From assembly GCF_000002075.1 (NCBI RefSeq), contig NW_004797458.1, positions 535,065 to 599,064 on the forward strand: a stretch of 64,000 nucleotides of DNA, read 5' to 3'. This DNA comes from Aplysia californica (taxonomy: Eukaryota). Both the position numbers and the translations under genes were made by a program. How positions within the stretch are numbered: position 1 is the first letter of the stretch; every line of letters begins with the position of its first letter. The notes beneath the pieces were generated by a model. It searched no databases and had not been told where the DNA came from. It saw only the letters and a list, made by a program, of their open reading frames with translations. Shown in pieces: positions 6,529-58,454 of this stretch.

Positions 6529-7416
6529 TCATTTTTTAAATCTTGGAGGAGGAGGTCTGGGTGGTTTAGGAGATTTCTGTGTGGTATTTGACCCTTGTGT
6601 GGGTGACACAGAGCTCTGTGTTGACTTCAAAGTTGTGATAGGTTGTGCAGCAGAGTATGGAGGGGAAACTGTACTCGAAACACCAGGATATTTGTTCTGA
6701 CTACCCTGCTCTGGGCTTGGTTTTCTGGATCTTTCAGCAGCATCGTTTTGTACCAGACTCCCTGCCATCAACAAACTAGGGTGGACTCTAGACAGGACGG
6801 ACGGAACAGCTCGGCTGTGCGAGTCATTAGAGGATGTGCTGGTGAGATCAGCTTTTCTCTTTTCATAAGAGCCCTGGACACTTTGGGAATGAAGTGAACG
6901 GTTCTGTTGGGTCTGAACCTGTGGCATACACAAACGTACATTAGCAGGATTTAGCAGCATATCATCCATTCTTCCCTTTGGGGGTTTAGATAAATGACTC
7001 TGACGACCCACTTGGAAACCTTGAGACTGTGCTCTCACTTCTGAAGGTTTACCAGTTGTAGATAAACCACTTGCTGCTGAGCCATTCGGCTGTACACCAC
7101 TTCCTGTTTTCCTCATTCCAGGAAAGCTGGGACTATCACGTGCAGACCTCCCCCGCAATACGTCGGACACAGGCGTTGGGGCAGAGTCAGAATCCACATC
7201 TTCATAAACATGCTCTGTATCAAAGTCAAGAACATTTTCCACACTTTTGCTCTTCCTCAACCCAGGACTAGGCGACCCATGCTGTAATCTTGGTGGTGGT
7301 CGTGATGGGCGAGGGGGGAGTCGGATGTTCTCTCCAGACTGACCACGGAGTGGTTGCCCATGAAGTGCCTTTGGAGATCCTGGCAGAGACACTGAGTGTC
7401 CAGCTCGTACATTTGC
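6529..7416 (-). CDS. NCF2: p67phox-like terminal coding exon: 295-aa Ser/Pro-rich low-complexity tail ending PKPPRPPPPRFKK
   Basis: 888-nt open frame after a TTTCCCCATAG acceptor, in phase 0 with exon 6. Includes ORF 6529..7392. Linkage to the upstream exons is inferred. Confidence 0.75.
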   Translation of the reverse strand, partial: ANVRAGHSVSLPGSPKALHGQPLRGQSGENIRLPPRPSRPPPRLQHGSPSPGLRKSKSVENVLDFDTEHVYEDVDSDSAPTPVSDVLRGRSARDSPSFPGMRKTGSGVQPNGSAASGLSTTGKPSEVRAQSQGFQVGRQSHLSKPPKGRMDDMLLNPANVRLCMPQVQTQQNRSLHSQSVQGSYEKRKADLTSTSSNDSHSRAVPSVLSRVHPSLLMAGSLVQNDAAERSRKPSPEQGSQNKYPGVSSTVSPPYSAAQPITTLKSTQSSVSPTQGSNTTQKSPKPPRPPPPRFKK

Positions 7417-7880: not shown

Positions 7881-10800
7881 GATACTGACTGATCAACTTA
7901 AACGCTCCATCATTTTATGTGTGCAATACTAAAGTTTACCTGCATGTCGTATTCAGCTTCTAAATAGAGTTACAATCAGAATACCTAGTACGTAACTAGC
8001 TTAACATTATTTTGTTTATATCATTTTAAACTAATACTATGCATGTGACTGTGAGCCTGTTTATAAGTGAAAGCATACTATTATATTATTATGTGCACAG
8101 ATGTGGGTGGAAGAGAGGATGTGCGGTGGAAGAGTGCGTGTGTATATGGGTCACGGCGTCATTTTTCGCCCGATTCTGTTACCTTTAGTTAGCGTGACTC
8201 AGCAGCCCGCTGGAGCTCCCCGGCTCGGGGTCATGGGGTTAATGAGCCTTGAAGCGACTTTGCCGGTGTCGGTTAAGAAGTTCGCATTTTTGTCTACATT
8301 TGAAACTATATAACTTCTTCCCCATTCCACACAGCAAACCATTACGGGGATGTACAAAAAGCTCAACTTCTTGAGATTTATTCTGTTTTTGAATGGTTAA
8401 TTTCTGTGCCTTAGTTTTTGTTCAAGACAAGTGTTTGTAGAGTACCCAATTTGTCCTATTTTAGTTACATACTTCTGAATAAATGATTGTTTATTTTAAA
8501 AAGGCACGACAGATCTCTCCAAAAGCTGTGTTAAACTGACTACGAATATCGTGTCTTTTACCATGAGAAATCTTACATCTGCGCGAATAGTAATAGTCAA
8601 GTTATAAGAGAAGAAAGATGCACATCTGCATTTTTTAACTAAAGACACTTAGCGTTAGCTCTTGTTCTACTATTAACAAGAGAAAGTTACTCTGCCTTTG
8701 TTCATGAATCATGCTGTGTCTGTGGCAGCCTGCATACAACTAAGAATAATATTTTATGAGATTAAAAAGCCCCTACAAAAGTGTGTTAATACATGGGTAG
8801 AGATGAACTTCTTGTATGGAATTAAAAAATGACAGCTAACATTCATTCTTAGTTTTTGTGTCGGACATATGCGCAGACACTCATGAATGTAAGGAAATAA
8901 GAACATTGTCAGTTATTGCAAATGGCTATAGAAACGAAAATAAAAGCTGGAAAAGCCTGGTGCTGATTCAGTGTCACTGGAAAGCTAGAAATTATTCTTA
9001 TAATTCAATTACGAGAAGTCATCCCTGTTATCCTGTCAACTTACAAAACCTAGATCTAACGTTTAAAGAAAAATAAGGAATAATTTATGGAGTGTAACAG
9101 ATAGTCTACTGTTTGTGTATTACATTGTTGTAGATGTATTCTTGCACTAAATATCGGTTTGCACTTTTTCGTAGAGAGACATCAGGGTAATTTTGATAAG
9201 CTTTAGAGAAAATATGCGAATATTCCTCATTATATTAGACACATAAAGTTGTATTTGGAGGAATTACTTCATAGTGAATTTGTGTGCCAGATGGATAAAG
9301 TTGCAAAATTACAGCTTCCTATTATACGCGCAGATACCAGCTTTTCTGAGAATCTGCACCAATGTTATTTCGTTCATGTTCCAAAAGTTCGACAGTCTTT
9401 GTCTGGCTTTTTTTTTACATTGATTTTTTTTCATTCAGACGTACAAAAAATTTTACAATTTAGCATTGCCGACTTCAGCGCGTCTAATGAAACAACCAGA
9501 CAAGTTACAATGTCTGTCGTTTTTTTGGTCTCATGAGCAGAAATGTTTGCTTTGGGTGCACTAAATGATAATTATCATAAATACAAGGATACACCTAATA
9601 CTGTACGTTGAAAAGTACCAAAAATTGAGTCAGCCCAGACAGAGCGGCGACAGGGAGCTGACCCCCGTGACCCCGACGTGATAAGGCGCTCGGCGGGGAA
9701 CCCCCCTTTACAACTAAAACTCCACTGCCGGTGCGCCATGGGGTGTGCACCTGTGCGGTGCGTATGTCTGTGTGTGCATGTTTGTGTGTGTGTGTGGGTG
9801 GGGAAAGTGTGTGTATGCATGTGTGTGAGTATGTGTCTATGTGGTAAAACACCAAACCAATGTGCTATGATCTAGACCAGTGGTTTTCAAAAAGGGCGAG
9901 AGTTTGGGGGGCGCTGTGGCGAAACTAGGCGATTGGGGGCGCTGATGGGCGCTAAGGGGCGGTGTGAAATTTTCATGACATGCAACATAAAACATGATGA
10001 GGGGAAAAAAGCCACATAAAAGAACAAAAACAAAAACAAAAATTGATAGCTTAGGCATAGTTTACACTTATAACTAAGAACTTTCTTTCCCAGCCCGCAA
10101 ATCCCATATAAAGAAGATTCATCACGACAAATCTGACAAAGATGTGGCAAACTTCAAAACTCTAAAGATCAATTTTCAGAAATGAAAATCAGTGAAACCG
10201 ATGTTTGCAGCCAACGTCGATCAAGCTGATGAAGGCTTACGAGCAACATATAATTTATCTCAGCTAATTACAAAGGCAGGGAAACACCATGCTATCGGTA
10301 GGACCTCATATTGCCTGCGATAAGAGAGGTGGTCAGCACAGTCCTGCAACGTGCCCCGGAGCCTGTGTTGAAATTTTTCCCACTAAGTGCAAATACATAT
10401 TCAAAAACGTTTAGATGAGATGTCAGCTAATGTTGAGGAATCACTGTGCAAAATGCTGAAAGGACGTGAGCTCAGCCTTTAACTGGATATCAGTTCATAG
10501 AAGGTGAGGAAATAATGCAAGAATTGTTATATTTGCGAAAATGTCGGAAACAGATACCAAAGGCGAGTCCATTTTCAAAGTGGTCCAAGAATTTTTCGAG
10601 GAGAAACAGATCCCTCTGACCAATACAGATGCCTGTGCAACAGATGGGGCACCGTCGATGGCAGGTCGGAAACGTGGATTTATGAACTTCTTGAAGAAAT
10701 CAGTCCATGGAGTATTTACTGTTTACTGTGTCATTCACAGACAGAATTTGGTTGTAAAAAACCTGAATGATAGTCTGCATGGCACACTGGTCATTGGCAT

Positions 10801-11310
10801 CAAGTGTGTGAACAATATCAAAGTCCACGCTTTGAACTCGCGACTGAAAATGACGAGTACTTTCAATGCTTATTTTTGCACATTGAAGTCTGGTGGCTCT
10901 CGAAAGGAAACTGTTGAACACAATTATTGTTCTGCCTGTTTGACTCTGTGCTGGAGCTTTTTTCAAGAAACAGACAGTGATTATTATAGTCTGCAATAAA
11001 CTGAAAGAACACAAGAACAACATTGCGCTCCTCACAAATCTTTTCACAAAGTTCAACCAGTTCAACTTTCAGCTGCAAGGGGATGACACCAACCTGATCA
11101 AGGCTTTCATCATTCTTGTCGAAATTGGAAATGATCCGCCGAAACATTGGCAGAAGAAAATTTCTCAGTTTCCTAGCTTGACGAAGACACTGAAAGAAGG
11201 GCGCATTTCTGACGAGGAACTACAAATATATATAGCAACCACCTCAGAGATTTGCACGCTGATATGAAGACAAGGTTTAGCCTCCTGATATTTTTAAACT
11301 GGAAATTCCA

Positions 11311-11463
11311 TAATAATAATAATAATAATATATAACATTTAAAGAGCGCATTTCCAAAAAAAGTAGCTCAATGCGCTTTACATTGGAATACCCATTTTTC
11401 AAAAACCTTTCTTACTACTTCCTTTCTTCTCAAGCAATATACATTAATGCACACACACACACA

Positions 11464-11526
<63 letters not shown>

Positions 11527-12510
11527 ACTATTTTCATCCAGACATAGGAAAAGAACAAATGTAATGAAAGATAACGTTAAAAGCTTATGAAGGATAGGCC
11601 TGTAGGAACAGAAAATGTTTAAGATGTCTTTTGAAGCTATCAAGTGTTCTTATTTGTCTTAGTTTCATGGGTAATCTGTTCCACATAAATGGACCAAGAT
11701 ATGAGAAAGATCTCTCTCCATATGATTTGTATGATTTTACAGGTGTCACAAGTAGGGTGTTATCGTTCGATGATCTTAGGTTTCTCCCTGGTTTATATAT
11801 ACTGAGAAGTTCTTGTAGATAAAAAGGAGCAGTTTTATTTACACATTTGAAACACATGACGCAGATTTTAAATATTATTCGTTCTTTTACAGGGAGCCAA
11901 TGCAGTTCTTTTAATAATGGAGTGACATGGTCTCGTTTTTTAGATCTTGTTATCAGTCTAGCGGCATTGTTTTGAATTACTTGTAAACGATTCAAATATT
12001 TGTTGTTCAGACCTGCCAGGAGTGAGTTACAATAGTCTAATCTAGATAGGATAAGAGATGTTACCAGTGTTTTTGTGGTCTCTTCGCTTAAGTACTTTCG
12101 AACTAGGCCTATCCTTCTCAGCTGAAAATAAAGGGATTTGGACAGAGATTCTACAAACGAGCCCATTGATAAGTGGTGGTCAATATATACACCGAGATTC
12201 CTGACAACTTCTTTACAGATGTCATATGCCCATATAAATCAAAGTTGACACTTTCCAGATCTTTATTTAATCGTGGATTTTTTATAAGAATGATGTCTGT
12301 CTTTTCTTCGTTTAGTTTCAATTTGTTTACTGTCATCCACTTTTTGATTTCATAAAAACATTGTTTAGTGATGGAAATCATGTTTGGTAGATCTTGAATG
12401 GTGCCAATAACATACATTTGGGAATCATCGGCATAAAAATGATAATTCAATCCATGATTTTGTAAAATGCTTGCTAAGGGCTGTGTATATAGTGTAAAGA
12501 GCACTGGTCC
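11311..12510 (-). mobile_element. 5'-truncated L2/CR1-group LINE inserted in the hAT transposase
   Basis: RT motifs LGPVLF, FYADD, SRLDYCNSLL, LHWLPV. 3' end TGTAAAGCGC stem-loop plus (TTA)n tail. Splits the transposase motif LEIP/WILDP. Confidence 0.92.
11449..11522. repeat. (CA)n microsatellite
   Basis: Seen directly in the sequence. Confidence 0.95.
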
Positions 12511-12698
12511 AAGAAACATCTTTATTGTCTAGATCAGTGGTTTTCAAACTTTTTTCGCCCACCGCCCCCTTTTTCACCCAGCCAAGTCCCAGCGCCCCCT
12601 ACTCCGCCCCAACCATCAATACGACATAACGACATGCATAATATAATAACAATCACAAATAAAGAGAGAGCTCAAAAAGTAGGGTAGAAAGTAGCGTG
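12511..12698 (-). repeat. 188-bp inverted duplicate of 13747-13934 (hAT right end, TSD and 16 bp of flank)
   Basis: Direct reverse-complement comparison; no mismatch seen. Confidence 0.93.
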
Positions 12699-13231
12699 GA
12701 TTTTTTATAAGCACTGGTCCAAATACTGGATACTGGACCCATTGAACACTGAAACAGATGATAACTTGCTAGTAGCAATTGAAGAAGAGCTTCTGACGAT
12801 GAAATGTGACTTTGAAATCTAACCATTGTTCAAAAAGCCGTACCAGTCATTCTGGTTGAAAACTGTTGTGCAAGACAAATATCCTTCCCTGTGGGAAAAG
12901 ATCAAGTTGTTGTTCATCTCTTTTCCCGCCTCCTATCTAGTAGAAAGGGGATTCAGTGCAGTGACCAGGTTGCTGACGAAACGTAGCGATTTGCGTCTGC
13001 TTCTGACCAATCTGAAACCTGATGTTAATAAGTTGGTTCCGTCTTTGCAGGTCCATCCTTCCCATTAGGGTAGTGTCAATAACTTATTTGCGCATGCTTA
13101 CTTCGTAGTTTGCTCTTACTTGATATCTCAATGTGTCTTTTCTTTTTTTTTCTTCTCTTTTTTTAAAAAGCAAAACATTCACTTGTTTAACAGAGTTTTT
13201 TATGTGCACGTGCTACCACTGTTGATGAAAC

Positions 13232-13288: not shown

Positions 13289-14027
13289 TAATTACAGACT
13301 AAGATCCATGCATACTTTTTCTTTCGTGTGGTTTCTCACATTTGAACAACTTAATATTTTTATTTTCTACAATGGAGATATTTGATACAAATCCCAGGCA
13401 ACTTTATTGCAGCACGTTGATGGGAGAAAACGTTTCATAATGATAATGTCAATCTGTTTTCAAACCAACGATTACGGGCGTTTTTATTTATTTATTTATT
13501 TCTTGGCGTTATGCTTCTGTAAATGTGATAATACATATTTTATTTTTATTGATGTTAATAACACTGGTCGTTTAGTACCGATGACAACTATATGCATAAA
13601 ATGACAGTATTTTGTTCTCAATCCCCTTGCATAAGATTGGAGAAAAATGTGTTTTATTATCTCTCATACACGCTTAATTTAAAACTCTGTAATGATGGTG
13701 ATTTGTGACTCAACTAATATTCAGAACTAAATCATTAGAATTTACGCACGCTACTTTCTACCCTACTTTTTGAGCTCTCTCTTTATTTGTGATTGTTATT
13801 ATATTATGCATGTCGTTATGTCGTATTGATGGTTGGGGCGGAGTAGGGGGCGCTGGGACTTGGCTGGGTGAAAAAGGGGGCGGTGGGCGAAAAAAGTTTG
13901 AAAACCACTGATCTAGACAATAAAGATGTTTCTTATCTTATCGAAAAACCATTCAAAACAAAGACCACAACCACCAAATTGTACAGATTTATATCAAAGG
14001 TTGATTGGTTTTATTTCAATTACATAC

Positions 14028-14099
14028 CGGCACTAGAACATCTTTTTCTTTCTGTTCAACTGCGTACTCAATATCTTTCTCTTGTACAGATGATATCAC
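14028..14099 (-). CDS. NCF2: p67phox-like coding exon 6 (VISSVQEKDIEYAVEQKEKDVLVP)
   Basis: VISSV matches VVASV of the activation domain (Val204 equivalent). TTCCAG acceptor, GTATGT donor. Confidence 0.8.
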
Positions 14100-14941: not shown

Positions 14942-15046
14942 CTTTGCCCTTCCCAGAAAATCATGCTTGACAAGATTGTCCACCATGTTCTTCGGAGGGT
15001 AGAAGAGGCAGTCCTCAATCGGCACGGTCTCCAAAATTGCTGGAGC
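14942..15046 (-). CDS. NCF2: p67phox-like coding exon 5 (APAILETVPIEDCLFYPPKNMVDNLVKHDFLGRAK), start of activation domain
   Basis: Matches p67phox [29 protein letters not shown] acceptor, AAG/GTGAAT donor. Confidence 0.9.
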
Positions 15047-15322: not shown

Positions 15323-16582
15323 CACTTTCCCTACCACGTGCGACTCACGGACCTGGCTTCGCTGGACCGAGAGCCGCAAAATACAGCTCGAGTGGCTTGC
15401 TATCTATTCCAATCCAGTAATGAAAAGACACGAAATTCTCGGCCGATCCACTTTTACAAAATAATAGAATAGACTTCCTGTTAGCAGATACAAAAGAAAA
15501 TACTGCACTGACAGACGATTTTTAGTCATTTCAGCGCTTTTTTTGTCCCCTTCGAAATGTAAATATGAGAAAAAAAAGCGCTCCCCTGACTTCAGTATAT
15601 GTCTTATATTTTCACTTCTATATTAGGTGTACGCATAACTAACATTCAGCATTTCTTTGCATTACTTGAGGCAACCTACCTGGGAAGTTTGAAAGAAGCT
15701 GTTGTTTTACTTTTTTAGATATGACCTTTCAAAGCTGGAAAATGATAGATTTCAGATGCTACGTGCAAACTAGACTGAATCCCTTTTTTTCATGAGAAGA
15801 TAACTGTTGGATTAAAAAAAATAATATTTGAATGTAAGAAAAGAAAAGCAAAAAGAAAAGACTAGATTCTAGGCATTTTTTTTTTCTTTGCAGAAATCAG
15901 GAGCAAAAAGACAAACAGTAAGAGTGCACTATATAAGATACTTGTACAAAACAAACAGCAATAACTAATACACCCAGACCTTTCATCTTACAGAAAAAAT
16001 AGTTCCACAAATCTCTGATGTTTAGGTAAAGGGGCTTTCTGACATTTAGAATCTTTCCAGAACTCACAAAAAATGCATCCAGAAAAGCTCAGAAGGCTTA
16101 TGCTGGTGGGGATATTTTTTAAAATAAAAAACAAGGCAAATGGACAGGCTTTAAGTTTAAGATGAAACCTGTAACTCCACATGCACAAAAATTGACGGGC
16201 GCCTGCTTCCACCATGACGCGTCACAAATATTGCCATCAGTACCAATGGCAACTTCAAAACCATTGTGTAATGACAGCAGAAGTTTACTTTTAAAATGTT
16301 TATCTCCAAGAGGGGTAAACCCACTATGTCAGGGCCCTTTTTGGTACTAAATCTACAAATGACAAAAACGCCACTAAATTGGTCATTAAATCACAACAAG
16401 TGAACCTATTTAAATAGGTCTTCATGTAATGAATGAAATCCAGGTAAAAGAGACCTGACTGCCAAAAAATAATTTGATGTTGAAGTCGTTGTAAAGGAAT
16501 ATGCGCGAGCTGCTGTCAGCGGCTCACCAGTACAGCGGTTCTGACTGCGAGCAGCTGAGAGCGGCTTGCCGGAGATAAAGAG
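15323..16582. mobile_element. Possible piggyBac-like non-autonomous element
   Basis: TTAA at both ends, weak TIR (CACTTT/AAAGAG), GC-rich subtermini. Confidence 0.4.
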
Positions 16583-17242: not shown

Positions 17243-17287
17243 CTGACAAGAGAAAGACCTTCGAACCGCTGCTACACAGTCATCTAT
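17243..17287 (-). CDS. NCF2: p67phox-like coding exon 4 (IDDCVAAVRRSFSCQ)
   Basis: Strong polypyrimidine tract plus CAG, CAG/GTGAGA donor, phase 0-0. Weak similarity to KIDKAMECVW. Confidence 0.65.
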
Positions 17288-17475: not shown

Positions 17476-17828
17476 TGCTACGTGCAAGCTAGACTGAATC
17501 ACTTTTTTTCATGAGAAGATGACTATGTTGGATTTAAAAAAAAAAAAAAATTTGAATGTAAGACAAGAAAAGCAAAAAGAAAAGACAAGCCATCTTTTTT
17601 TTCTTTGCAGAAATCAGGAGTAAAAAAACAAACACTATGAGTGCACTATATCAGAAACTTACACAAAACAAACAGCAATAACTAATACACAAAGACCTTT
17701 CATCTTACAGAAAAAATAGTTCCACAAATCTCCGATGTTTACGTTAAGGGGCTTCCGGACATGTAGAATCTTTCCAGAACTCACTAAAAATGCATCTAGA
17801 AAAGCTCAGACGGCTTATGTTGGTGGGG
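17476..17828 (+). repeat. ~350-bp direct repeat of 15757-16110
   Basis: Colinear, high-identity match from TGCTACGTGCAA to GGCTTATG.TGGTGGGG. Confidence 0.9.
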
Positions 17829-17931
17829 AATCACTGAGATAGATCTGGCAAGAGTCCACTACAAGAATTCATGGGTCTACAAGTGGCTTTCCAAAATCTA
17901 CGTATGTAGTAATACTATCAGAAATCTAGTA

Positions 17932-19968: not shown

Positions 19969-20074
19969 ATGCTCTACAGTCAAGAGAACACTTGCCCCAA
20001 GCTGTCGATAGTCGATGCCGTCTGCGGGCGTCATGGATTTGGCAGTGAGGAAATCCAGCTCTGCTCTGTCATGT
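19969..20074 (-). CDS. NCF2: p67phox-like coding exon 3 (HDRAELDFLTAKSMTPADGIDYRQLGASVLLTVEH)
   Basis: IDYRQLG matches p67phox IDYKILG. Phase 2->0 is consistent with its neighbours; TTTCAG acceptor, GTAAGT donor. Confidence 0.88.
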
Positions 20075-22605: not shown

Positions 22606-22688
22606 CTCTGTAGCTGTAAGTAGGAAACAGCCCTTTGGTAATAAGCAGCAGCAAGATATTTGTCTTTGTCCACAGCCGTAGAAAATAA
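22606..22688 (-). CDS. NCF2: p67phox-like coding exon 2 (LFSTAVDKDKYLAAAYYQRAVSYLQLQR)
   Basis: Matches p67phox [26 protein letters not shown] acceptor, GT donor; 83 nt. Confidence 0.9.
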
Positions 22689-24024: not shown

Positions 24025-24198
24025 TTTAATTGCCTCTTCATTCCGGCCTTCAGACAAGTGCAAACATCCGATATTGTGGAGTACTTTGGCAGACGCATTG
24101 TTGACCTCTAGGAGCTTGCGGATAGCAGCCGTTACTTGACCAGCCTGGAAGAGACACATGGCTGCATGCCACTTGCCGACAGTGTCTCTCAGCGCCAT
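24025..24198 (-). CDS. NCF2: p67phox/NOXA1-like NADPH oxidase activator, coding exon 1 (MALRDTVGKW...HNIGC...EEAIK, TPR1-2)
   Basis: Aligns without gaps to p67phox residues 1-58 (MSLVEAISLW...FNIGC...EAEK). ATG at 24198 with an in-frame stop upstream. Acceptor at 24290-24291, GTAAGT donor after 24025; 174 coding nt. Confidence 0.9.
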
Positions 24199-28927: not shown

Positions 28928-31900
28928 CTAAGATTTGGAGTCAATTGGCTTGGGGCTCTGTCTGGCCAATAGCCTTGCTGATCGCCGAGTGACGCCTGGA
29001 GGTGTGCTCACGCTTATGGGAGCATCTTGCTCTTGTATGCCAGGGGCGTTGTGCGGCTGGAGCGAACGTAGAGCACGCGGGGTGGCTTGAGCCTGAGGTT
29101 GTGGAACCACCGTCTCGACAGCAGGGCGTGGATCAGGTGCTAATTCTTGCCCGGATTCGGGGACAGTAGGCATCGATGGATCGTGTGTTGGGGGGTCCTG
29201 AACGCCAGCTGGTTGTGGTAGATCCGGGCAAGGAGAGGGCGGCGAGGTCACGCTGGGCTTGGTATGCTCGGGGGTGTGAATATTCTGAGGCACTGACTGT
29301 GGTGGTGAGGTGCCACCCGGGATCATTGTCAGTGGTGAGCGTGGGACCACAGGCATGTAGTTGCGGAGGAACTTTCTGTTGCGAAGAGTGACGCGGCCAG
29401 AGCCATCCACTCGAACGACGTACTGGTCAAATTGACGTACTTCGACTACAATGCCCGTCTTGTCCCATTTGGTCGGGTGGGTTCCCGTTTGGTTCTGTAT
29501 GCGCACACAGTCACCGACGACGAGTGGAGGTAAGATGCGAGTGTGCTCAGAGAGGCGCTCAGCGGTGAGCATGTGCCGGTTCCTCAGTGCCTCCTCTCGC
29601 GACAGAATGGTTTCACGCCAGGTACTGTGAGGCTGATACTTCCCTGGGTGGATGGGGATGAAGTCCCGTATTGGACGTCCAAAGATACACATCGTTGGGG
29701 ATAGGTGGGTGTCACGATCAGGAGTGTTCCTGTATTGCAGCATTGCGCGCTGGAACTTGTCAGTGTTTAAAGATCCTTGGGCACCTGTGTTGTCAGCGAT
29801 CAACCGTTTCACTGTCTTTACTCCAACTTCAGCGCGACAATTAGATTGGGGAAAGGCGACTGAAGAGACCCTGTGGTGGACAGCCCAGTTGCAAAGGAAG
29901 GTGGAGGTTGCCAGGGACGTGAACTCTGGGCCTCCGTCCGATGTCAGTTCATGGGAGGCTTCTTCAACGATAGGCCAGTTACTGTACCTGTCGACTGCAA
30001 CTAGGTAGCTGTGGCCTCGATGATGAAAATAATCCGCCGCAATACATTGGAACGGGTATGCCGGTGCTATTGGAGGGGTGGGAGGTGCACTCGGCTGGGA
30101 AGGTGCCATGCGGTTGCATGACTGACAGCGGGTCCGCACTTCAGTGATGGCCGGGGTCATGCCGAGCCAGAAAAACGAGGCCACAGCTCGAGAGCACATT
30201 TGGGACACACCCTGGTGAGCAGAGTGTAAGGACTGGAGGACTCGCTCACGGAGCGACGGGGGGATGACTACCCGGTCGTGGTACAGGATGACACCATCAA
30301 ATGTCGTGAGTGAGGAACTCCCGGAATTGATGGTATGGGCGAAGATCAGGGGACAGAGAAGTCCTGTCTTCAGGGAACCCATCCTCAATAGTGTTACTCA
30401 AAGCAGTCATTGTAGAGTCGCTGGATGTTGCAAGTCGAATCTCGTCCCAAGTCACTGACTTGATCACCTCAGTTGGAGCGAGGTCAGGTTTGGAGCATAC
30501 CTGGTTGGTGTCGTCCAGTTCCTGGGTGCAGATGGCAGAAAGAAAGTCGTGTGGCAGTTCAGGTGTCAAGGGAGGGTCATCAGGGAGCAGAATGGGAGCG
30601 GCAGCATCAGGGAGCCTGAGAGTGTTAGGGCTGCCCACTGGTCTGCGGGAGACGGCATCTGCTGCAGCATGGCGTAGACCGGGGATGTGGACGATGCGGA
30701 AGCGATATCTAAGGGACTTCTCCGTGAGGTTCCTGAGGCGGGGATTGGGGATATCGTCGAGACACCGGTCCCCAAACGTCTTCAAAAGAGGTTTGTGGTC
30801 CACCGCCACGATCAGGTCGGAACAACCCAAGGTGAAATGGCGTGCTTTGTCTAGTGCATTAACCGCAGCCAGGGCTTCACTTTCTATGGGCGCATAGCGG
30901 GACTCGGCTCCTGATGTGAATCGACTACCGACCAGGGTGATCTTCCAGCCAGTTTTGCGGCAAAATGGCTTTTCCGAAAGACAAGTACAATGTTTCTGGA
31001 AGAGCCAGAAGCCTATGCCATCCTTGCTCCAGTCGGTGGCAAGGCAAGTTGGTTTCTTCTTGTCAAATATTTCAACCCCTTGGTGGATTTCGTTGCTGAT
31101 GGCCTCCTTTGACCATTCAAACAGACGGCCGAGCTCCTCTGCCCATTCGAGGCGTTTTCCCGGCTTCAGCGCTTCCCGGAATGGGAGCATGCGTTCAGCG
31201 GAAGCGAAGGCATAGGATACCTGATTGATGTGACCGAACCAGCTCCTGACGTCGGTGATGTTCCGAGGTGTGGGGAAATGTCGAATGGCCTCCAGGTAGC
31301 GGGCACATGGGCGCACGGTGGAGGGAGTTATTTCGAAACCTGCAAACTCAACCGTAGTTTTGGCGAATTTAAACTTGGATGGGTTGAGTATGATGCCATT
31401 GGTGCCACATAGGTCATGCCACTTGACGGCCTGAAAAAAGGCTTCCTCAATAGAGTTTGACCACATAAGGGTGTCGTCAATGCATTTGGTTTTGTGGGGG
31501 AAGTCGGCAACGATCTCATCGAAGTGGCGGCTGTATCCATCCCCGGATGATATGTAGCCTTGAGGAGCCACTGCTCCAAGCCCTCTCTGTTCTCCTCTGT
31601 GGCAGGAAACGGGAGGGAGGTTGGTGGTGGCGGAGGTGATTGGCGGTGTCAGCACCCGCAAGTCGGATTGTCCTTCGAATTGATAGCTGCACTGGTGGCG
31701 CCAATGGTCGGAAAGCTAGGAGGGATTATTCCCAAAGCCACACAGGCTTGCTTGCTTAGGAATACCCGACCAGTGGATGTGGTGAAGTACACCATCTGGT
31801 GGGTCCTCAGCTTGGTGTTGGACGGAGATGTACCAGAAATACGAAGGGGAAGGGCTCCGATGATGTCAATGGCCCCACGATTCGCAGCTGTCATCTTCAT

Positions 31901-43860: not shown

Positions 43861-45991
43861 TATCAACGGGGTACTGTAGTTTGTTAGTTACATGTACTTA
43901 GAAAAGGAAAAAAATCAACATGATTAATAAGTCATTTAATCAATAACTAAGAATACTGCCTTATTAATAAATTGTAGCTTAATTTTATTGAGACTTGATT
44001 ATTGCAATTCCTTACTATCCGTAATATCTGTGGAGAAAGTGAAAAGACTTCAAATTAAAAAAAAACAATGCTGCAGATTTAGTTTTTTAGAAAATACAGA
44101 AAGCGAGACTGTTTGACTGATAACGTAAAGTACCATCATGTTTATAAAATCTGTTGGAACTGTACATTCTTCCTTCTCGCAGTTCAAGGTCATCAGCTGA
44201 CAAAAAGAAATTTCTTTTAGCATTTATAAAACGATATTTTTTAATTTTTTTGGGGGGGGGGAAGGGGGGTGTTTGCAATCAACATTCCCTCTTCCTCCAT
44301 CATCTTCATGGCTGTTGCAACGACTCAGATAATTTTCTTTAGTGCTGGAAAGTCTGTTTCTGTATAATTCTTTCTTTTCAATTTTTTTGTTATGAACAAA
44401 TTTTATCCTCAAGTGGAACCACTGTCATTCCCCTGGCACCTTGAAATGACACAAACAAATATGAAAGTGCGAACAGAACTTTATCCCGATCTAAAAAGCA
44501 GAAGTGATTCAAATGGAAAAAGCAATACAACTTATTTTTGCACTGTTTTCACACACTTCCTAATTTTTAAACAAAGGTTGGAAGTGTGTGTGAAATAAAT
44601 TAATATGGAATATGTTTTAAGGAAGTGTATATTTATACGGCAGGCCGTCGGAAAATCGGAAGTGATAATTTCAGCCAATCAGGACAACCGGACTATTTAT
44701 AAATAAGCCTATAATTGCTTTTCCAGAATTAACACATTATAGATACTTTTTTAAAGATACCTGTAGGTTTATTTTAACAATGTTTATCGTTTGTATCATG
44801 TTGTGCTTTATGGACAATGATGAAATGTTTTGTGTGATTGTAACGAGAGTAGAGATGCACAATTTATCTTGTGCACGCAAATTTGTTTTTTTTCCAATAG
44901 TGGGGTACCTATTTGCGGATGGGGTTGGGTCTGGTCGTGTCTGGATGATCACCCGATTCGTCGCCTGAAAACAAACGCAATTGTTTTTTAGGCTGCGAGT
45001 CGGGCGCGGTCGGCAGCTTGTGCCACGATAGCCACTTTGCGCCCTCAATCTGGCTGGCAGACCGCCCCACCTCGACCTGATCCCCCAAAGGGCACCCCAT
45101 GCTTTGCCTGAGTGCATGAAATTGACATTATTTTATCACCTATTTTCATTTGCAATACCTTTTGTATGAAAGAGTAAGATGTGTAAAGTAAAGTAAATGT
45201 ACTTGCATTGTAATGTAAATCTAATGTCGTATACCGGTAAACGCTCTGGGTATTTCCGTTACATCTCCTTGGATTAAATACCTTGCATTGATACACTTCA
45301 AGTAGGGCCTATCTATTCTGATCTTTAGATTCAAGACGGCATACCGTATGATGTTCAGACAGCATGCTGTGGAAATATCGACTACGATCTTCAGACGGTT
45401 TGCCGTCGAAATATCGCTACCTTTTTGTAACTTTCCAAGATGCACACACGGTTTGTAAGTGCCCAGTGACCGTGAAGGTTCTGCTGTTGGCTGACAAAAT
45501 GCCTTTATTAAAATTCTCAGCAGTTTCAAGAAAGAAGGCATTTTGTCAGCGTAACCATTAAAGAAAATGCTTTCTTCTGAAATTTGAATTCTAATTTGTA
45601 AAAAAAACTGGTGACAGTTTCACTTTGATTTGTCACACACGTAGGGTTACTGATCGGGCTATCAATTTAACAAATTAAAAAATTTGACACCCAACAAATG
45701 AAGAAATGCGTTTCGCAGCGGACGACAGAGTTAATAAACTGTTCTGTGCCTTGGAAAGCATGCGCATAAAACCAACCAAGAGATAAAAGGATTCAAAGGT
45801 GTGTGGGCCCATCTGCACACTGCCCTCTCCTGTAGGACGGACCAGTAGCGGAATTTTCCGTGAATTATCCTGGAGGGAGAGGGACTTAAAAAGATTTTTT
45901 TTTTTTTTAAAGAGATAAAATATAGAATATAATGGTAGCAGAATGCAAAAAATCTTTGCCAAGACAAACACTATTATCTCTATTCTTTTAG

Positions 45992-46191
45992 GTTCCCCTG
46001 ACTTGGAGTCAGAAGGATTTGACCTTGGCTCCGTCCCCTTGGCAGCAGGCCTGAGTGACGAGGAGTTTGCGCGGCAGTTGCAGCAGGAGGAGTGGGAGGC
46101 GGCCAGCAGCCACGGCCACGATGACTTGATGCTGCCCGAGCCACGGGGAGCTCTGGGCTTGGGGCAACTGCTTTCTTTCCAAAACAGACGG
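45992..46191 (+). CDS. RING-H2 E3 ligase exon 2, with UIM/MIU-like motif SDEEFARQLQQEEWE
   Basis: Phase 1->0 consistent; TTTTAG acceptor, GTGAGT donor; ubiquitin-binding helix pattern. Confidence 0.8.
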
Positions 46192-47085
46192 GTGAGTTGT
46201 TGTCTGTGCGATCTTGAGACAGTTACAGTTGGGTTGGTGTCGAGCTTACTTTTACTTTTACTTTTTCATCCTGTGTTGCCGTTAAGTGTCGAGGGAAGAT
46301 GCATTTTCCTATAGTAGACCAGCTCTGCAGCTCTTTCAATTGGGATATTATAATTTCTCATGGTTTCATTGGCTCACTCAATCCACCTTTTGATTGAAAT
46401 GTCATAGAAGTATTTATTAATGAATATTTCCTCATGAATTTCTGCATGTACATTCTCTCCATTGAATAACATTTCTATTGATACAATTTTTGGGGGATTT
46501 CTTTGAGAGATATACCCCCAGTGGGTCGGGGGGATATAAATAGACCCACTGCTTCGTCTGCAGAAGGTGCAACCCCTTCAAAGGCGGAGTGTCGCACACG
46601 GACCCCAACCCTCTGGGATCCGTGTGCGACACTTACTTTGGTGTATCCTCCTCTTCTCCTTCCTTCTTTCTTTCTTCTTCTATCTTTCCTACCACCGCTG
46701 ACCTCATGTGCAGCAAAACGAGAGGTCACCCATTCCACAGAGTGGGCGCCTTGTTGACCGTGAGGTGCGACCCGTGCGGAGGGAAACCGGGCACCTGGCG
46801 GTTGAGGTGAGATCAGTCTACGGACTGTCCCTCACCAACACACCTCTTTGGCCCAGGTTTTCCTCTTAGACAGGAGGGTGGCACGGCCCATTCCACTCAA
46901 TCGGTTGGGAGTTGAAACAACATCAAGCCCTGGGTCAATCTTGACGGGAGGGTTTTACGCACTCTCGTGGAGAGTATAGCTCCGGGGTAGCCCTGGCACA
47001 GCTCTGGCCATCCGAGCAATGTGTCCCCTTGTTGGGCTCGATGGCGGGCGGGGAGCCCCGGAGTTGAACCACCAAAAAAACTCAC

Positions 47086-48590
47086 ATGGATTCTTCAACT
47101 ACAAAAAACCCTTCCCCAACTCCCAACGTTATTAAAAAGTCTCGGCTCGCGGAAGTGGGTGCGGCCGCCGAGCCGAGCAAACATAAAACAAAAGGAAAAA
47201 GGACCTTTACGACTGCCTCTGCCCTCCCTCCTCTCAGGGAGCTTCCGCGGCAGCCGTACTTGACCATCCGCAGCACCGATGCACAGAAAAAGATGACTGA
47301 TTTAAACGTATTTAAGATAGGAGATGCTCTAAGACAGGTTCTGGGATACATTCCTACGAATGTCCAGAAACTGTCCTCTGGTGCTCTCCTCATCAAGTGT
47401 GCATCGGATAAAGAACTGGCCGGACTTGAAAAGATAACGACCTTCGGTGGTGTTCCTTGTGTTTCCGAGCGACACCAGAAATTTAACCAGTCGAAGGGCG
47501 TGGTCCGCAGCCATGAGCTGAAGGGCTGCTCCAACCAAGATATTGTGGATAACTGTGAGGGTGTGGTCGAAGCCCGCCGAATTACTATTTGGCGGGGGGA
47601 GTCCACGCTAGAAACGAACACAATAATTCTAACTTTTGATTCGTGCCGCCCTCCAGCCACTGTTCGGGCATCATACTTGGTCTTGGACGTGCGACCCTAT
47701 GTGCCGAACCCTCTACGCTGCTTTCAGTGTCAGAAGTTCGGCCATAGTCAGTCGCGATGCCGACGTGCAGCCGTGTGTCCTCGCTGCGGCAAGACTGGGC
47801 ATCCTGAAAAGGAATGCAAGGCTAGTCCTTGCTGCCCAAATTGCCAAGACCAGCACACAGCCTTCAGCAAGGATTGCCCGACTTGGATTCAAGAACGCGC
47901 AATCCAAGAGAATAAAGCACGAAATGGATGCTCTTTTCAAGAAGCCCGAAAAGCTGTCTGCCCGCCAGGTATGACCCCGGTCCCTGGCCAGTCATACGCA
48001 AGCGTACTCTGGCCAGTCACGAAGTCGACCAGTGCTTCCACTGTCGACCCCCCCAGAACCCGCGGTCAACAAGAAACTTACTGCGAAACAAAAAAAGGTT
48101 CCTCCTAAAACTGTGGTACCCACCTTCCAGGTACCACTAACTAACCGCTTTGGGGTTCTTGGGGAGGATGGGGTGGACTCTTCCTCCACCCCCCCTTCTC
48201 CCCCTCACCCCTCCTCTATTACTCCTTCTTCTTCTTCTTCTTCTTCTTCTTCTTCTTCTTCTTCTTCTTCTTCTTCCACCTCTCAACCCATCTCTCTGAT
48301 GGAGATTGAGGTACTCCCTCCCCCCTCTCCCCAGCCCCCTCTGTCTGCTCCACCTCCCTCTACCCCTCCACTCCCCCCCACTACCAACGGAGGATGACAT
48401 CTCTGACCTCCCTCCCCGGCCTGACCCCGGGAAGGGCGGAGTCTGTCACTCCTCCAAATCCCCCACTAGACCGCTGTCCAATCCAGGACGGCAACCTAGA
48501 AAACACTCTGCCTCCCCCGCAAGGAGGAGTCAGAGTGCTTCTTCGAAGCCGGGGCCTTTGAGCTCCAAACAAAAACCTAAAAAATCATAA
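47086..48590 (+). pseudogene. LINE ORF1 (gag-like, 3x CCHC), frameshifted near 48050 and ~48390
   Basis: PYVPNPLRCFQCQKFGH, CPRCGKTGH, CPNCQDQH; NRF motif; poly-Ser from (TCT)n. Confidence 0.88.
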
Positions 48591-51500
48591 TGGCGGTCCT
48601 GCAATGGAATGCCGGCGGAATCCGACCTTCCATTGCTGAATTGCAACATTTACAGGCCACACTGTGCCCACGGGTGGCCTGTATTCAAGAAACAAAATTC
48701 GCCCCGGCTTCAACCATAGACTTAAGAGGATTTACTGCGTACCATCACATTCACACGAACCAGATTGCTTCCGGTGGTACCACCATCTACACCGACAACC
48801 ACACACTCCACAGACAAGTACATCTTAAGACGACCCTCCAGGCTATTGCCGTACGGGTCACCCTGCACAGACCAATCACGATCTGCTCAGTTTACATCCC
48901 ACCAACATACCCCCTCAAAATAACCCAACTAAATGACTTAAAATCTCAGCTCCCAAAACCTTTTATTTTGCTAGGTGATTTCAATGCCCACAGCCCCCTT
49001 TGGGGAGACAAACCTATAGACCAGAAAGGAAAAATAATAGAAAACTTTTTATTTCAAAATAACAGCTGTCTCTTAAATGATAAATCCCCAACTTACAGAA
49101 ACAGAGCCACTTATGGCACTTCATCCCTTGACCTCACCTTTCGTACCCCTGACCTAGTCCCAGATCTTGAGTGGTCTGTGCTGGATGACCGTACGGACCA
49201 TTTCCCAATTCTCCTAAAAAACAATAGCCTCCAAAACGACCCGATCCCAGAACGCTTCAACTTAAAAAAAGCCGACTGGGACGGGTTTGCCAATCAATGT
49301 TCCAAGATTATTAATCCCAATTTCGACCACAACTACAATAAATTCCACGAAAAGCTCTTAGAAATATGCCACAATCACATTCCAAAAACAAAAACAAAAC
49401 CCCGGAGGAACAAAATCTGGTTCTCTTGGGAATGTGAGGACGCAATAAAGAAAAAGAAGGCAGCGTATCGAAGAGCCGTCAACAACACCACCATAGAAAA
49501 CAAGATAATTTATTTAAAGGCTCGAGCTGAGGCACGTAGATGCCTCAGGGAGAGCAAAAGACAATCATTCCAAAAATACATCCCCAAAATCAACAGCCAG
49601 ACACCACTCAACCAAGTTTTCCAAATTGCTAAAAAATTCTTAGGTAGACGCACAGACACCATTCGGCACGTCCAGAGGCCGGATGGAACAACAGCTGAAA
49701 CACAAGTAGACATTGCAAACACAATAGCTACATCTCTAGCCAAAAACTCATCCCAAGCAAACTACAACACCACTTTTCAAAACGTCAAAACTAACAGAGA
49801 AAAACAACACCTAAACTTCCACTCAAACAACACTGAAACCTACAACGCAGACTTCACAATAGACGAATTAACATCGTGCATCTCGGACCTGGGCGATACA
49901 GCCCCGGGACCGGATGACATCCACAACAAGATCATTAGACACTTACCCTCAGAAACACTCACACTCCTACTACACATATACAACGACATGTGGCGGTCGC
50001 ACTCCTTTCCGGAGTCTTGGCGTCTCGCCACTGTCATTCCAATACCCAAACCTAACAAAGACCACACACACCCATCCAATTACAGACCTATAGCCCTAAC
50101 GAGCTGTCTCTGCAAACTGATTGAAAAAATGATTCACAGGCGACTCATGTGGTTTCTGGAAACGACGGGCTCGCTGAGCGGTCAGGAAAACTCGATCCAC
50201 TCTGGATCACCTGGTCCGCCTGGAGACCTTTATACGCGAGACGTTCGCTGAAAGAGGCCACATGATCGCCATCTTTTTTGACCTAGAAAAAGCCTTCGAC
50301 ACAACCTGGAAGTACGGCATTCTTCGAGACCTGCACGCACTCGGCAAACGCGGTCACCTCCCTGCCTTCATTGGCAACTTCTTGAAGAACCGTTCCTTCC
50401 AGGTTCGTGTCGGATCCTCCCTTTCAGACCCCCACCAACAGGAGGAAGGAGTCCCCCAGGGGAGCATCCTTTCTCCTCTCCTATTTGAAATTAAAATAAA
50501 CTCCATAGTGAAAACCCTCCAGAACAGCATAGACAGCTCGTTATACGTTGACGACTTCTTGATATGCAGCCGATCGAAAAATCCTCATTTGAGATCTATG
50601 GAAAGGCAGCTGCAAACGCAGCTGCAAAAACTTGAAACGTGGGCAAACAACAACGGTTTCAAGTTCTCCCCGTCAAAGACGGTTGCAGTACACTTCTGCC
50701 GAACAGGCAGATGTGTGCTGCAGCCGGATTTGACACTATACGGGGAAAGGATTCCCGTCCAGGACCAAGCTCGTTTCCTCGGCGTCATTTTCGACAAAAA
50801 ACTTACATTCATACCACACATCAAAGACCTTCGTGTGAGGTGCGAGAAAGCGTTAAACGCTTTGAAAATTCTATCAAATCCGGAGTGGGGCGGGGACTCA
50901 AAACACCTCCACTTGTACATCTCCCTTGTCCGGTCCAGGCTTGACTACGGCTGTCAAGTCTATGGATCGGCAAAACCACACGTCTTAAAAATACTAGATC
51001 CAATACAAAACCAAGGACTCCGCCTCGCTCTGGGGGCTTTCCGCACTTCTCCGGTGGAGAGCCTCCAGGCCGAGGCCAACATACCACCACTCTCACTCAG
51101 ACGCACACAATTCTCACTACAATACGCAGTTAAACAGAGCTCAACACCGGAAAATCCAGCGCACAACAGCATTTTTCAAACAAATCCAGAAACCATAAAC
51201 AGATTCCAAAACAACGAAAAACTCATCAAACCTTTCGGCCTCAGAATCCTTGAGGACCTCAAAAACTTACACTTTTCCAAACAAGACATCCAACAAATTC
51301 TTTTCCCCGACCTCCCTCCGTGGCACCTCACCAAGGCAAAAGTAGATTTACAGCTGACCACACACAACAAAGAAAGCACAAACACCAAAACTTTTCAAGC
51401 AGAATACAAAAAACTAATAGATAAATACCCCGGTGCGGAGCTCATCTTCACGGATGGCTCCAAAAAAGACAATGAAGTGGGCGCCGCAGCCCTATCTCCC

Positions 51501-52224
51501 AACAATACACACCAGAGGAGACTACATCCTGAAGCCTCCATTTTCACTGCGGAGGCCACTGCCATTGACATGGCACTGGACTCTGTAGAAAATTCTCCTA
51601 ACAAATCTTTCCTGATCCTTTCTGACTCTCTGTCTTGCATCACCTCACTCACAAACTACACACTCTTACACCCAAAAATAGTTAGGCTACAACAGAAAAT
51701 CCATACACTATCTGAAACAGGAAAAAACATCATGTTCGCATGGATACCCAGCCATGTGGGCATCCGAGGAAACGAGCAGGTAGACGACCTGGCGAAGAAA
51801 GCTTCATCCCTTCTGCTGGGATCAACGACAAACACTCTCCCACAGACTGACTTTAGAAATTAAATCAAAAAGTACACCTCCAGTCTGTGGGAGAGCCACT
51901 GGGAAAACCAGAAAAATAATAAATTATATGAAATAAAACCCAAACTAGAACAGCGAACTCCTTCGGATCTCTCCAGAAGAGACGAAGTCATTTTTACTCG
52001 ATTGCGCATCGGACACATGGCCCTGACCCACAAATACCTCCTACAGGGAGATGAGAAGCCGCACAGATTTTACCATTAGACACATTTTAACAGAATGTCT
52101 AGACTTTGGAGAGATCTGAAGTAAATATTATAAATGCAAGAAATTGCAGGATATTTTTTCCGTCGTTGGTCCCAGCAGAATTTTAAATTTTATAAAGGCC
52201 ATTGGCCTTTATGGCGAGTTGTAG
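48590..52224 (+). pseudogene. LINE ORF2 (APE-RT-RNase H), frameshift/deletion at ~50180, stop at 51861
   Basis: LQWN, IQET, GDFNAH, DHFPI, YRPIALTS, GVPQGS, YVDD; C-terminal CCHC partly deleted. Confidence 0.92.
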
Positions 52225-56871: not shown

Positions 56872-56953
56872 TTGAATTAATTTCCCAAAGGCAAGAAGAA
56901 ATAGAAGTAGAAAACAAAGCATTAAAAAACCCAACTTCATCCTGTCCCCTCAG

Positions 56954-57196
56954 CAACTACTGGCTCTAGCAGAGCAAATTGGGGAAGTGAACCGCGGCCT
57001 GTCAAAGTCAGAGCTGGACAAGCTTCCCACCAGCAAGCACCGATGTGACAGCTCGGAGGGGGCAGAGGCCGGGGCAGGCAGCGCAGACAGCCAGCAGTGT
57101 AACATCTGCCTCAACGACTACGAGAACGGGGACAGGAAGAGAAACCTTCCGTGCAAACACGACTTTCACAAGGACTGTGTGGATCAGTGGCTCAAG
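56954..57196 (+). CDS. RING-H2 E3 ligase exon 7 ([17 protein letters not shown]...CNIC...[15 protein letters not shown])
   Basis: RING-H2 ligands C-x2-C and C-x-H-x2-H-x2-C plus the conserved W. The [12 protein letters not shown] motif resembles RNF38/RNF44/Arkadia-type ligases. Confidence 0.93.
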
Positions 57197-57235
57197 GTGA
57201 GGGCCAGGTGTGTGTGTGTGTGCATGAGTGAAAAT

Positions 57236-57280
<45 letters not shown>

Positions 57281-58454
57281 GATAACAGAAAAGGGTCGAG
57301 GGTCAGTTTTAAACACAGTCAAATCTGCTCTCAAGACAATCACTTGTACGAATGACCACTCCCCCTTGCGTTTTTTAAATGACACTACTGTCTATGACAA
57401 CCATATGTCTGAGATGAACACTTTTCTTCTCAATAATAGATGGTCACCTTTGACTTTGCGGTTGAACCTGTCCATAACAGTCACTCAAGATCACAAAGAA
57501 AACTGTTATAGAGAGGAGGCCACTATGCGAATGTTTCATTTTTTTTGTGTGCCCCATTTCATTTTTTTCCAAATTGTCATCTATCATCAGAAGCAGTTTC
57601 TTTGCATTGACTGAATGTATAAACTCAGCCTCACCGACTACGAGAACGGGAACAGGAAGGGGGGTTGGCTGAAAACTTCTGTAATTTGTTGTAAATGACC
57701 ATAATGATCAGGTTGGGAAGCTGTCTTGTGGCAAAAATGACAAGCCGCGTCTTCGTTGGGTAGGGGTTACTAAGGGCAGGTTAAGAATATAGGAAAGGCA
57801 AAAGTGTGTTAAGGAACAGTGGCCATCAGTACAGGTGACTTCTATGGAAAGCTGACCTTGAAAGCAGGTTCGACTGTGGTTTATTTATAGAGGTGTCTAG
57901 TATCTGATCGCTGATACTTAAAAAGGTAAAACAAAATTTTACAAAAATTCTAATATGGGTATGTGAGTGGTTGATAAATGACTGTGATTTCCTCCTTCTA
58001 CTTTTTTGTGCCATCTTATTCACATACATGATTTTATGTTCTACATGTACCCCCGTTAAATAATGTTGAAATGTGAAATTTCTGTAATGAGCTTTTTAAT
58101 TTTTAGAAAATGGAAAAGCTGAGCATAAATTATATTATGATTATTACTATGTAAATTTAGTCTTTGATATTTATTTTGGTTCCTGTGGAATTTCCTGTGA
58201 ACAATGCAACAAGCTTACTGGCATCTCATGAAATGAGATAAAGACCCAAAGGCACTCTTCAGCAACTACAATCATCCTTATCTCTGCTCCTCCTTTTTTG
58301 TGTTTACTAACAACACTTCTAATCTTCCACCCTTATGTAACCTAATTGTGTTGCAAGTGCTGTAAAACTCCTTCAAACAAAAACCTCTTTAGCGAAGCAT
58401 TTTTCTCTCAGCTGATACGAGAGTTCAGAGTTCTTTCTTCTGTTTCCTCCGCAG

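Follow-up and report, generated by a model that had tools for sequence, protein, structure and literature searches.

Our analysis points to a p67phox (NCF2) of Aplysia californica that is likely a working NOX2 activator, tethered mainly by contacts between its tail and SH3 domains, with weak or no direct binding to Rac; we give this reading roughly even odds (about 0.5). We consider it the most economical because the part of the protein that faces NOX2 is constrained and the Rac-facing Arg loop is not, SH3 and PB1 domains are absent, proline motifs are kept in the tail, and the candidate organizer has spare SH3 domains. Proteins of this kind turn on the enzyme whose superoxide kills germs. The gene lies in a 64,000-nucleotide stretch of DNA (the window, meaning the whole stretch analyzed), and we refer to its product as the window protein.

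The gene is on the minus strand, as are all its coordinates given here. Its seven coding exons (174, 83, 106, 45, 105, 72, and 888 nt; sum 1473 nt), joined by coordinates, form an intact frame of 490 residues with one terminal stop. Exon 1 (24025..24198, 174 nt) starts with ATG and encodes TPR1 and the start of TPR2, including Lys38; it matches Pfam TPR and is 52% identical to the Arion ortholog. Exon 2 (22606..22688, 83 nt) contributes Asp67 (22664-22662) and the start of TPR3, and is joined to exon 3 in contigs of sequencing runs. Exon 3 (19969..20074, 106 nt) is flanked by an AG acceptor and a GT donor, coincides exactly with the interval singled out in a first-pass annotation of this DNA, and encodes the end of TPR3, a shortened loop, and the beta-hairpin with its IDY..LG motif. 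Exon 4 (17243..17287, 45 nt, 15 aa) is predicted; it has AG/GT ends, is in frame, and aligns without gaps to six orthologs. The F.PP segment and the first half of the activation domain (DFLG) are encoded by exon 5 (14942..15046, 105 nt), and the second half, including Val172, the equivalent of human Val204, by exon 6 (14028..14099, 72 nt). Exon 7 (6529..7416, 888 nt to the stop) encodes a Ser/Pro-rich tail with no Pfam domain. It was present in 20 of the 24 listed sequencing runs; among the listed runs, none containing exon 7 is on record as RNA.

The window protein belongs to a recognizable gastropod family. HMMER comparison of exon 1 with 1.84 billion representatives gave 96 matches, seven of which aligned from residue 1 in one stretch; five of these were named heterobranch gastropod proteins, and two were annotated as neutrophil cytosol factor 2. 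A word search with the gastropod alignment returned five gastropods and Dictyostelium only, adding Bulinus, Elysia marginata, and Dictyostelium; neither this query nor Elysia residues 36-182, which returned three gastropods, reached a bivalve, abalone, or caenogastropod. Over 180 residues, identity between the window protein and the six usable gastropod proteins is in the range 38-52%. An HMM built from six gastropod proteins and Dictyostelium matched human p67phox chains with E values of 1e-32 to 1e-35 (1HH8, 2.2e-35), and the nearest clusters in the Atlas were NOXA1/NCF2. Single-exon queries found no p67 structure among PDB sequences and no homolog by word search.

For the fold, we used the AlphaFold2 model of the Plakobranchus ortholog, which shares the Pro loop, as a stand-in; 133 of its residues have pLDDT of at least 90, the beta-hairpin is above 90, and the tail is disordered. 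Four p67phox structures were its best matches by Foldseek and by VIA-align (Z 20.6-21.7; next, 16.1). Residues 1-172 of the model align to 1-200 of 8WEJ chain D (Z 21.6, rmsd 2.1, 167 aligned), and residues 2-154 to 2-185 of 1E96 chain B. Judged from these alignments and the model, the window protein is a true p67phox-family member, its TPR domain having a hairpin insertion after TPR3, and the first-pass identification as p67phox-like stands. TPR1-3, the hairpin, the F.P segment, and the activation domain align with human p67phox/NCF2 (1E96, 1HH8, 1WM5, 8WEJ) in sequence and fold. Equivalents of human Asp67, Asp108, Leu199, and Val204 are kept, with D165-F-L-G-R-A-K-V172 aligning to human 197-204; unlike the human protein, the window protein has Pro for Arg102, lacks Asn104 and about 31 further residues, and has no SH3-PB1-SH3 region.

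Exon 3 encodes K98 S99 M100 T101 P102 A103 D104 G105 I106 D107 Y108. Pro102 is specified by the codon CCC at 20026..20028, and D107 corresponds to human D108. In the HMM alignment, the Pro102 column falls on human p67phox R102 (1HH8; 8WEJ chain D) and the gap on N104; MAFFT with Dictyostelium places the loop gap after position 103; and in the Arion ortholog, whose loop is equally short, this column holds Arg. All three support the register of site 102. The exon translation and these alignments bear out what the first-pass annotation had read from the letters, namely Pro at the Arg102 position in a loop one residue short, with the Asp67 and Asp108 equivalents kept (D67, D107). Contigs of all four public runs that we examined cover the Pro102 codon with no differing letters (that these runs are RNA is a guess), and the exon 2-exon 3 junction, which skips 2531 bases with GT..AG ends, was seen in three of the four, with at least 31 letters on each side in two. 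Since the four runs agree at the codon and the junction is observed, Pro102 is not an assembly error. In run X9, a contig has 241 letters before exon 3 and leaves exon 2 uncovered, which may reflect exon skipping or a filter. A different exon supplying the usual loop, which the first-pass annotation had named as a way out, is not found in the readable part of the 64-kb window; outside the N stretches, no other exon has an IDY..LG or RG..IDY motif.

Site 102 is TPR position 32 in the Pfam TPR register (residues 72-105 are positions 1-34 in the two Pro-bearing sacoglossans). Proline is the usual residue at TPR position 32, and designed consensus TPRs show proline there; Pro102 should therefore leave the fold undisturbed.

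Among published activators, site 102 is Arg in 25 of 25 alignment rows and in Lottia (26/26, counted by eye; PMC2121648, partial text). Lys38, which the first-pass annotation listed as a replacement of Arg38, is present as described but is no peculiarity, as Lys occurs in 14 of those 25 rows (by eye) and in Lottia (PMC2121648, partial text).

To place the window protein, we compared it with six other heterobranch proteins: Plakobranchus GFN90222.1, Elysia chlorotica RUS80449.1, Arion A0A0B6ZA91, Candidula CAG5116705.1, Biomphalaria XP_055897866.1, and Bulinus P0101. The sample thus defined comprises seven heterobranchs plus one limpet and is without a caenogastropod, vetigastropod, or bivalve. 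Three further members of the Biomphalaria cluster have the same Lys loop and were not counted separately. The fragments P0033 and P0040 and the Elysia marginata protein P0102 were left out of the loop count; P0102 lacks the region from the hairpin to the activation domain, possibly through a gene-model error. The Candidula record P0016 has a 15-residue insert at an exon junction inside the activation domain, which may likewise be a gene-model error.

Heterobranch proteins annotated as "neutrophil cytosol factor 2(-like)" share the shortened loop (7/7), a 46-residue spacing described below, the absence of SH3 and PB1 domains, and tail motifs. At site 102, the window protein, Plakobranchus, and Elysia chlorotica have Pro, and among the seven heterobranchs only these do; Arion has Arg, Candidula Leu, and Biomphalaria and Bulinus Lys. 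Arg is thus found in 26 of 26 published activators versus one of seven heterobranchs. Site 103 holds six different residues among the seven proteins. No column of loop 101-105 is invariant (0/5; mean 0.46), making it the 13th least conserved of 171 five-residue windows, and in the same seven proteins 10 of 25 columns of the segment from F.PP through the activation domain are invariant (0.82), as are five of eight in the IDY..LG core. As far as the aligned sequences tell, the loss of Arg102 and of about 30 residues after the hairpin is a trait of the clade and not private to the window gene. Weakened Rac binding is a reasonable conclusion from the loss of Arg102 given the 26 of 26, but what the first-pass annotation described in one protein is a site drifting over seven heterobranchs. 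Only one of five inner branches of a tree of these proteins is strongly supported; the tree fixes neither where the window protein belongs nor how many times, and in what order, site 102 changed. We set aside the one-base distance of the Pro, Leu, and Lys codons from Arg as weak evidence, because 12 of 19 residues share it.

Other parts of the Rac site are kept. Asp67, the second key contact to Rac, is invariant in the seven proteins, position 107 is Asp or Asn within a kept IDY..LG hairpin, a basic residue occupies position 98 in five of the seven, and site 102 is Arg or Lys in three, two of which have a following Gly. Asp67, Asp/Asn107, the hairpin, and the basic residues at 98 and 102 are consistent with a remodelled but living Rac site, as judged by alignment. 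On these grounds, and because human NCF2 combines a tail motif of the kind described below with a need for Rac, we regard it as possible, if doubtful, that the protein is still Rac-dependent, the main rival to our favored reading. Rac-GTP would then be held, perhaps weakly, by the shortened loop together with Asp67 and Asp107, by backbone contacts, and by a basic residue at position 98 or at 102/103, and the membrane complex of NOX2, Rac, and p67 would offset the lost affinity. NOX2 docks both p67 and Rac (PMC13296129, partial text), mammalian Nox2 strictly requires the Rac-p67 link (PMC8387964, partial text), the hairpin is modelled at high confidence, and the Rac1 surface is canonical. Aplysia Rac1 is unchanged at all nine contact residues listed in the available text of PMC8387964, and so Rac did not co-evolve with the activator; this constancy is explained by the many other effectors of Rac. 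Against continued dependence, neither Pro nor Leu can form the side-chain bonds of an Arg that is invariant in 26 other activators, Asn104 is deleted, and the equivalent of human Leu106 is Gly, Cys, or Glu in the heterobranch proteins. Moreover, positions 98-105 of the Plakobranchus protein contain no basic residue at all, and a neighbouring Arg or Lys, another escape that the first-pass annotation had considered, is therefore not a general substitute for Arg102.

A prediction of the complex of Plakobranchus residues 1-180 with a stand-in Rac (96% identical to that of the genome itself), GTP, and Mg scored 0.00 in two runs made without alignments or controls, and carries no weight here for or against binding.

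The loop also bears on whether the protein binds another Rho-family GTPase, such as a divergent Rac-like protein or Cdc42. The genome has a third Rac/Cdc42-like gene (L005:1414-1640, G000:C374), which encodes Ser at both position 27 and position 30 and lacks two of the usual early introns, and in NoxR, positions 27 and 30 of the GTPase decide between Rac and Cdc42 binding (PMC5785021, partial text). Adoption of another partner would be expected to settle the loop into a new conserved form, yet residues 101-105 rank among the most variable stretches; we saw no positive sign of such a switch and consider it very unlikely. No Rac relative was found in viral contigs.

The second large change lies beyond the hairpin. 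In all seven heterobranch proteins, 46 residues separate the hairpin Asp from the F.P proline, versus 75 in Dictyostelium; counted by eye, the distance is 77 in human p67phox and 72 in Lottia. By this comparison, most of TPR4 (about 30 residues) is missing in the seven proteins, in the window gene by way of the predicted 45-nt exon 4, which encodes a single helix in place of the TPR4 and capping helix of other p67 proteins. Four complete TPR motifs are accordingly not present, and the Plakobranchus model has one helix replacing TPR4 and the cap. Another gastropod, Lottia gigantea, provides a reference. Its p67phox-like protein has TPRs, an activation domain, and Lys38, and occurs with NOX2, p22phox, and p47-like partners; unlike the window protein, it has Arg-Gly, a full-length loop, and a nearly full TPR4 region (72 versus 46 residues; PMC2121648, partial text).

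Pfam found no SH3 or PB1 domain in the five full-length orthologs scanned, in the last exon of the window gene, or in any of the 82 minus-strand frames of intron 6. The tails, otherwise divergent, have proline motifs in common. PxRPPP occurs in all eight tails (frequency in shuffles, 0.0005-0.0065), PxxPxR in seven of the eight, and a C-terminal [KR]PxRPPPP also in seven (0 of 2000 shuffles each). In the window protein, the first motif (7288..7320, residues 228-238, PxxPxRPPP) fits a published tandem-SH3 ligand motif, and the second (6544..6567, residues 479-486, [KR]PxRPPPP) is at the C terminus. The strict form of the motif for tandem-SH3 (p47phox-family) ligands, [PAVIL]PPR[PR][^DE][^DE], taken from PMC12730246 (partial text), matches the sequences of the window protein and three of seven orthologs (4/8 tails), which are thus putative ligands. 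Since human NCF2 has a similar proline motif, yet needs Rac, the tail motif alone does not imply Rac independence. The missing TPR4 residues (about 30), the absence of SH3 and PB1, and the conserved proline motifs all go beyond the first-pass annotation.

Other activators share parts of this architecture. Fungal NoxR and the Dictyostelium p67-like protein lack SH3 domains, as does the window protein; unlike it, they keep the Arg and have a PB1 domain. NoxR needs this Arg for RacA, and its R101E change abolishes Rac binding (PMC8146680, partial text). Tks4 and Tks5 bind the proline-rich region of NoxA1 (PMC7663256, partial text), a precedent for an activator whose own proline motif ties it to a PX/multi-SH3 organizer; unlike the window protein, NOXA1 has four TPRs, PB1, SH3, and the Arg that binds Rac. 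A second precedent is Nox3, which together with NOXO1 can dispense with the Rac site of the activator (PMC10886416, partial text).

Candidate partners are present in the genome. We found p22phox exons with a C-terminal proline motif and NOX2-like exons matching Pfam NAD_binding_6; the NOX2-like assignment also rests on what we take to be a resemblance to NOX2 motifs. A PX exon is followed within 46 kb by parts of four or more SH3 domains (L018-L022, G000:C193:1041500-1086900), together with a long proline-rich linker. This locus, known as separate exons, is a candidate Tks-like p47phox organizer.

We also searched the genome for a second p67 gene. The pattern RG..IDY..LG had no match in the assembly. 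A relaxed Arg-loop pattern had 20 matches (control, 8), of which 13 were in satellite, two in tRNA-like repeats, and five elsewhere; none scored as a p67 exon, the best having an E value of 9.5 versus 1e-10 to 1e-24 for true exons. The activation-domain pattern occurred only in the window gene, and the Arion protein matched only four exons, all of the window gene. A Dictyostelium paralog query was uninformative, as it missed even the window gene. The window gene is the only p67phox/NCF2 found, in exon-wise searches that may miss a divergent copy and an assembly that may be incomplete. As separate observations, the tRNA-like matches are a pair lying on either side of an N gap, 520 bases from each other (L120/L121, G000:C116), and the satellite is an array of a 41-base unit (L126-L138, G000:C1171).

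These searches bear on a dominant-negative or decoy role, in which the protein would occupy NOX2 or the organizer without activating. A protein that has lost its key Rac residue and kept its NOX2-facing segment has the expected look of a decoy, and the first-pass annotation had raised this role. In the exon-wise searches, no canonical p67 was found for it to oppose, NOX2-like, p22phox, and organizer genes are present, and the activation domain is conserved, with Val or Ile at the Val204 position in all seven heterobranch proteins; we therefore judge this role highly improbable. It also seems quite unlikely that the protein no longer works with the oxidase and has become a TPR-plus-proline adaptor for a different pathway. 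The remodelling is extensive (loss of TPR4, a long disordered tail) and Tks-type organizers have cytoskeletal roles (PMC7663256, partial text), yet the activation domain, known for NOX activation, is the best-conserved part outside the hairpin.

We favor a tail-tethered activator, which might work as follows. The organizer would use its PX domain and the first two of its SH3 domains to dock on p22phox and the membrane, and a free SH3 domain (the third or fourth) or a tandem pair would bind the p67 tail motif, the reverse of the vertebrate link between the SH3 of p67 and the PRR of p47. The activation domain could then engage the dehydrogenase domain of NOX2. Given such a tether, the Arg102 contact to Rac would be released from selection. 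Of the three options in the first-pass annotation (a Rac-independent activator, binding to another GTPase, or a dominant-negative regulator), the first probably comes closest, although a direct action of Rac on NOX2 may persist.

A broader version, in which sea slugs and pulmonates run NOX2 with a rewired activator that has only three TPRs, lacks a working Rac site, and is tethered in the inverted sense, is more tentative, and we would not bet on it. If true, no natural NOX2-type system with an activator working without Rac would precede it, it would mean that a tether plus TPR4 loss can replace the carrier and unmasking roles of Rac, and it would cover Biomphalaria and Bulinus, both hosts of schistosomes. 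Should Rac turn out to bind normally, what is left is a structural curiosity with an alternative interface.

The family itself is known and its orthologs are already annotated; the loss of Arg102 and TPR4 in gastropods appears to be the new part. The one published survey of these subunits (Kawahara and Lambeth, 2007; PMC2121648, partial text) concludes that all p67phox/NOXA1 proteins probably conserve Rac binding; here a gastropod clade departs from this at the key position and has, in addition, lost most of a TPR. In the literature searched, which excludes most subscription journals, we found no account of either loss in gastropods and no functional study of heterobranch NCF2-like proteins; the available portions of PMC11721785, PMC9334734, PMC7284029, PMC8228183, and PMC11647612 contain nothing on gastropod Arg102 or TPR4 loss. 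The presence of Pro, Lys, Leu, and Arg at one site of one scaffold offers a natural series with which to approach an old question, that of Rac as carrier versus allosteric trigger of p67phox. It is also relevant to the activation of the oxidative burst in haemocytes of schistosome-transmitting snails.

The window contains other features. Intron 6 holds a reverse-transcriptase fragment (10500-12530; RVT_1, Pfam), and in the same interval is an apparent DNA-transposon remnant, which we assign by presumed resemblance and which has no Pfam match. By eye, two pairs of intronic duplicates are visible (about 12520-12700 versus 13740-13920, and 15840-16100 versus 17560-17830). An LTR-retrotransposon integrase remnant (Integrase_H2C2) lies at 28931-30397 on the minus strand. 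On the plus strand, a LINE-type element at 47068-51860 has an ORF1-like frame followed by endonuclease, reverse transcriptase, and RNase H over two frames. The neighbouring gene, also on the plus strand and thus opposite to the p67phox gene, has a RING-H2 finger exon at 56876-57352 (Pfam zf-RING_2, E 4e-10); 45919-46311 (plus strand), which has no Pfam match, may be a further exon of it.
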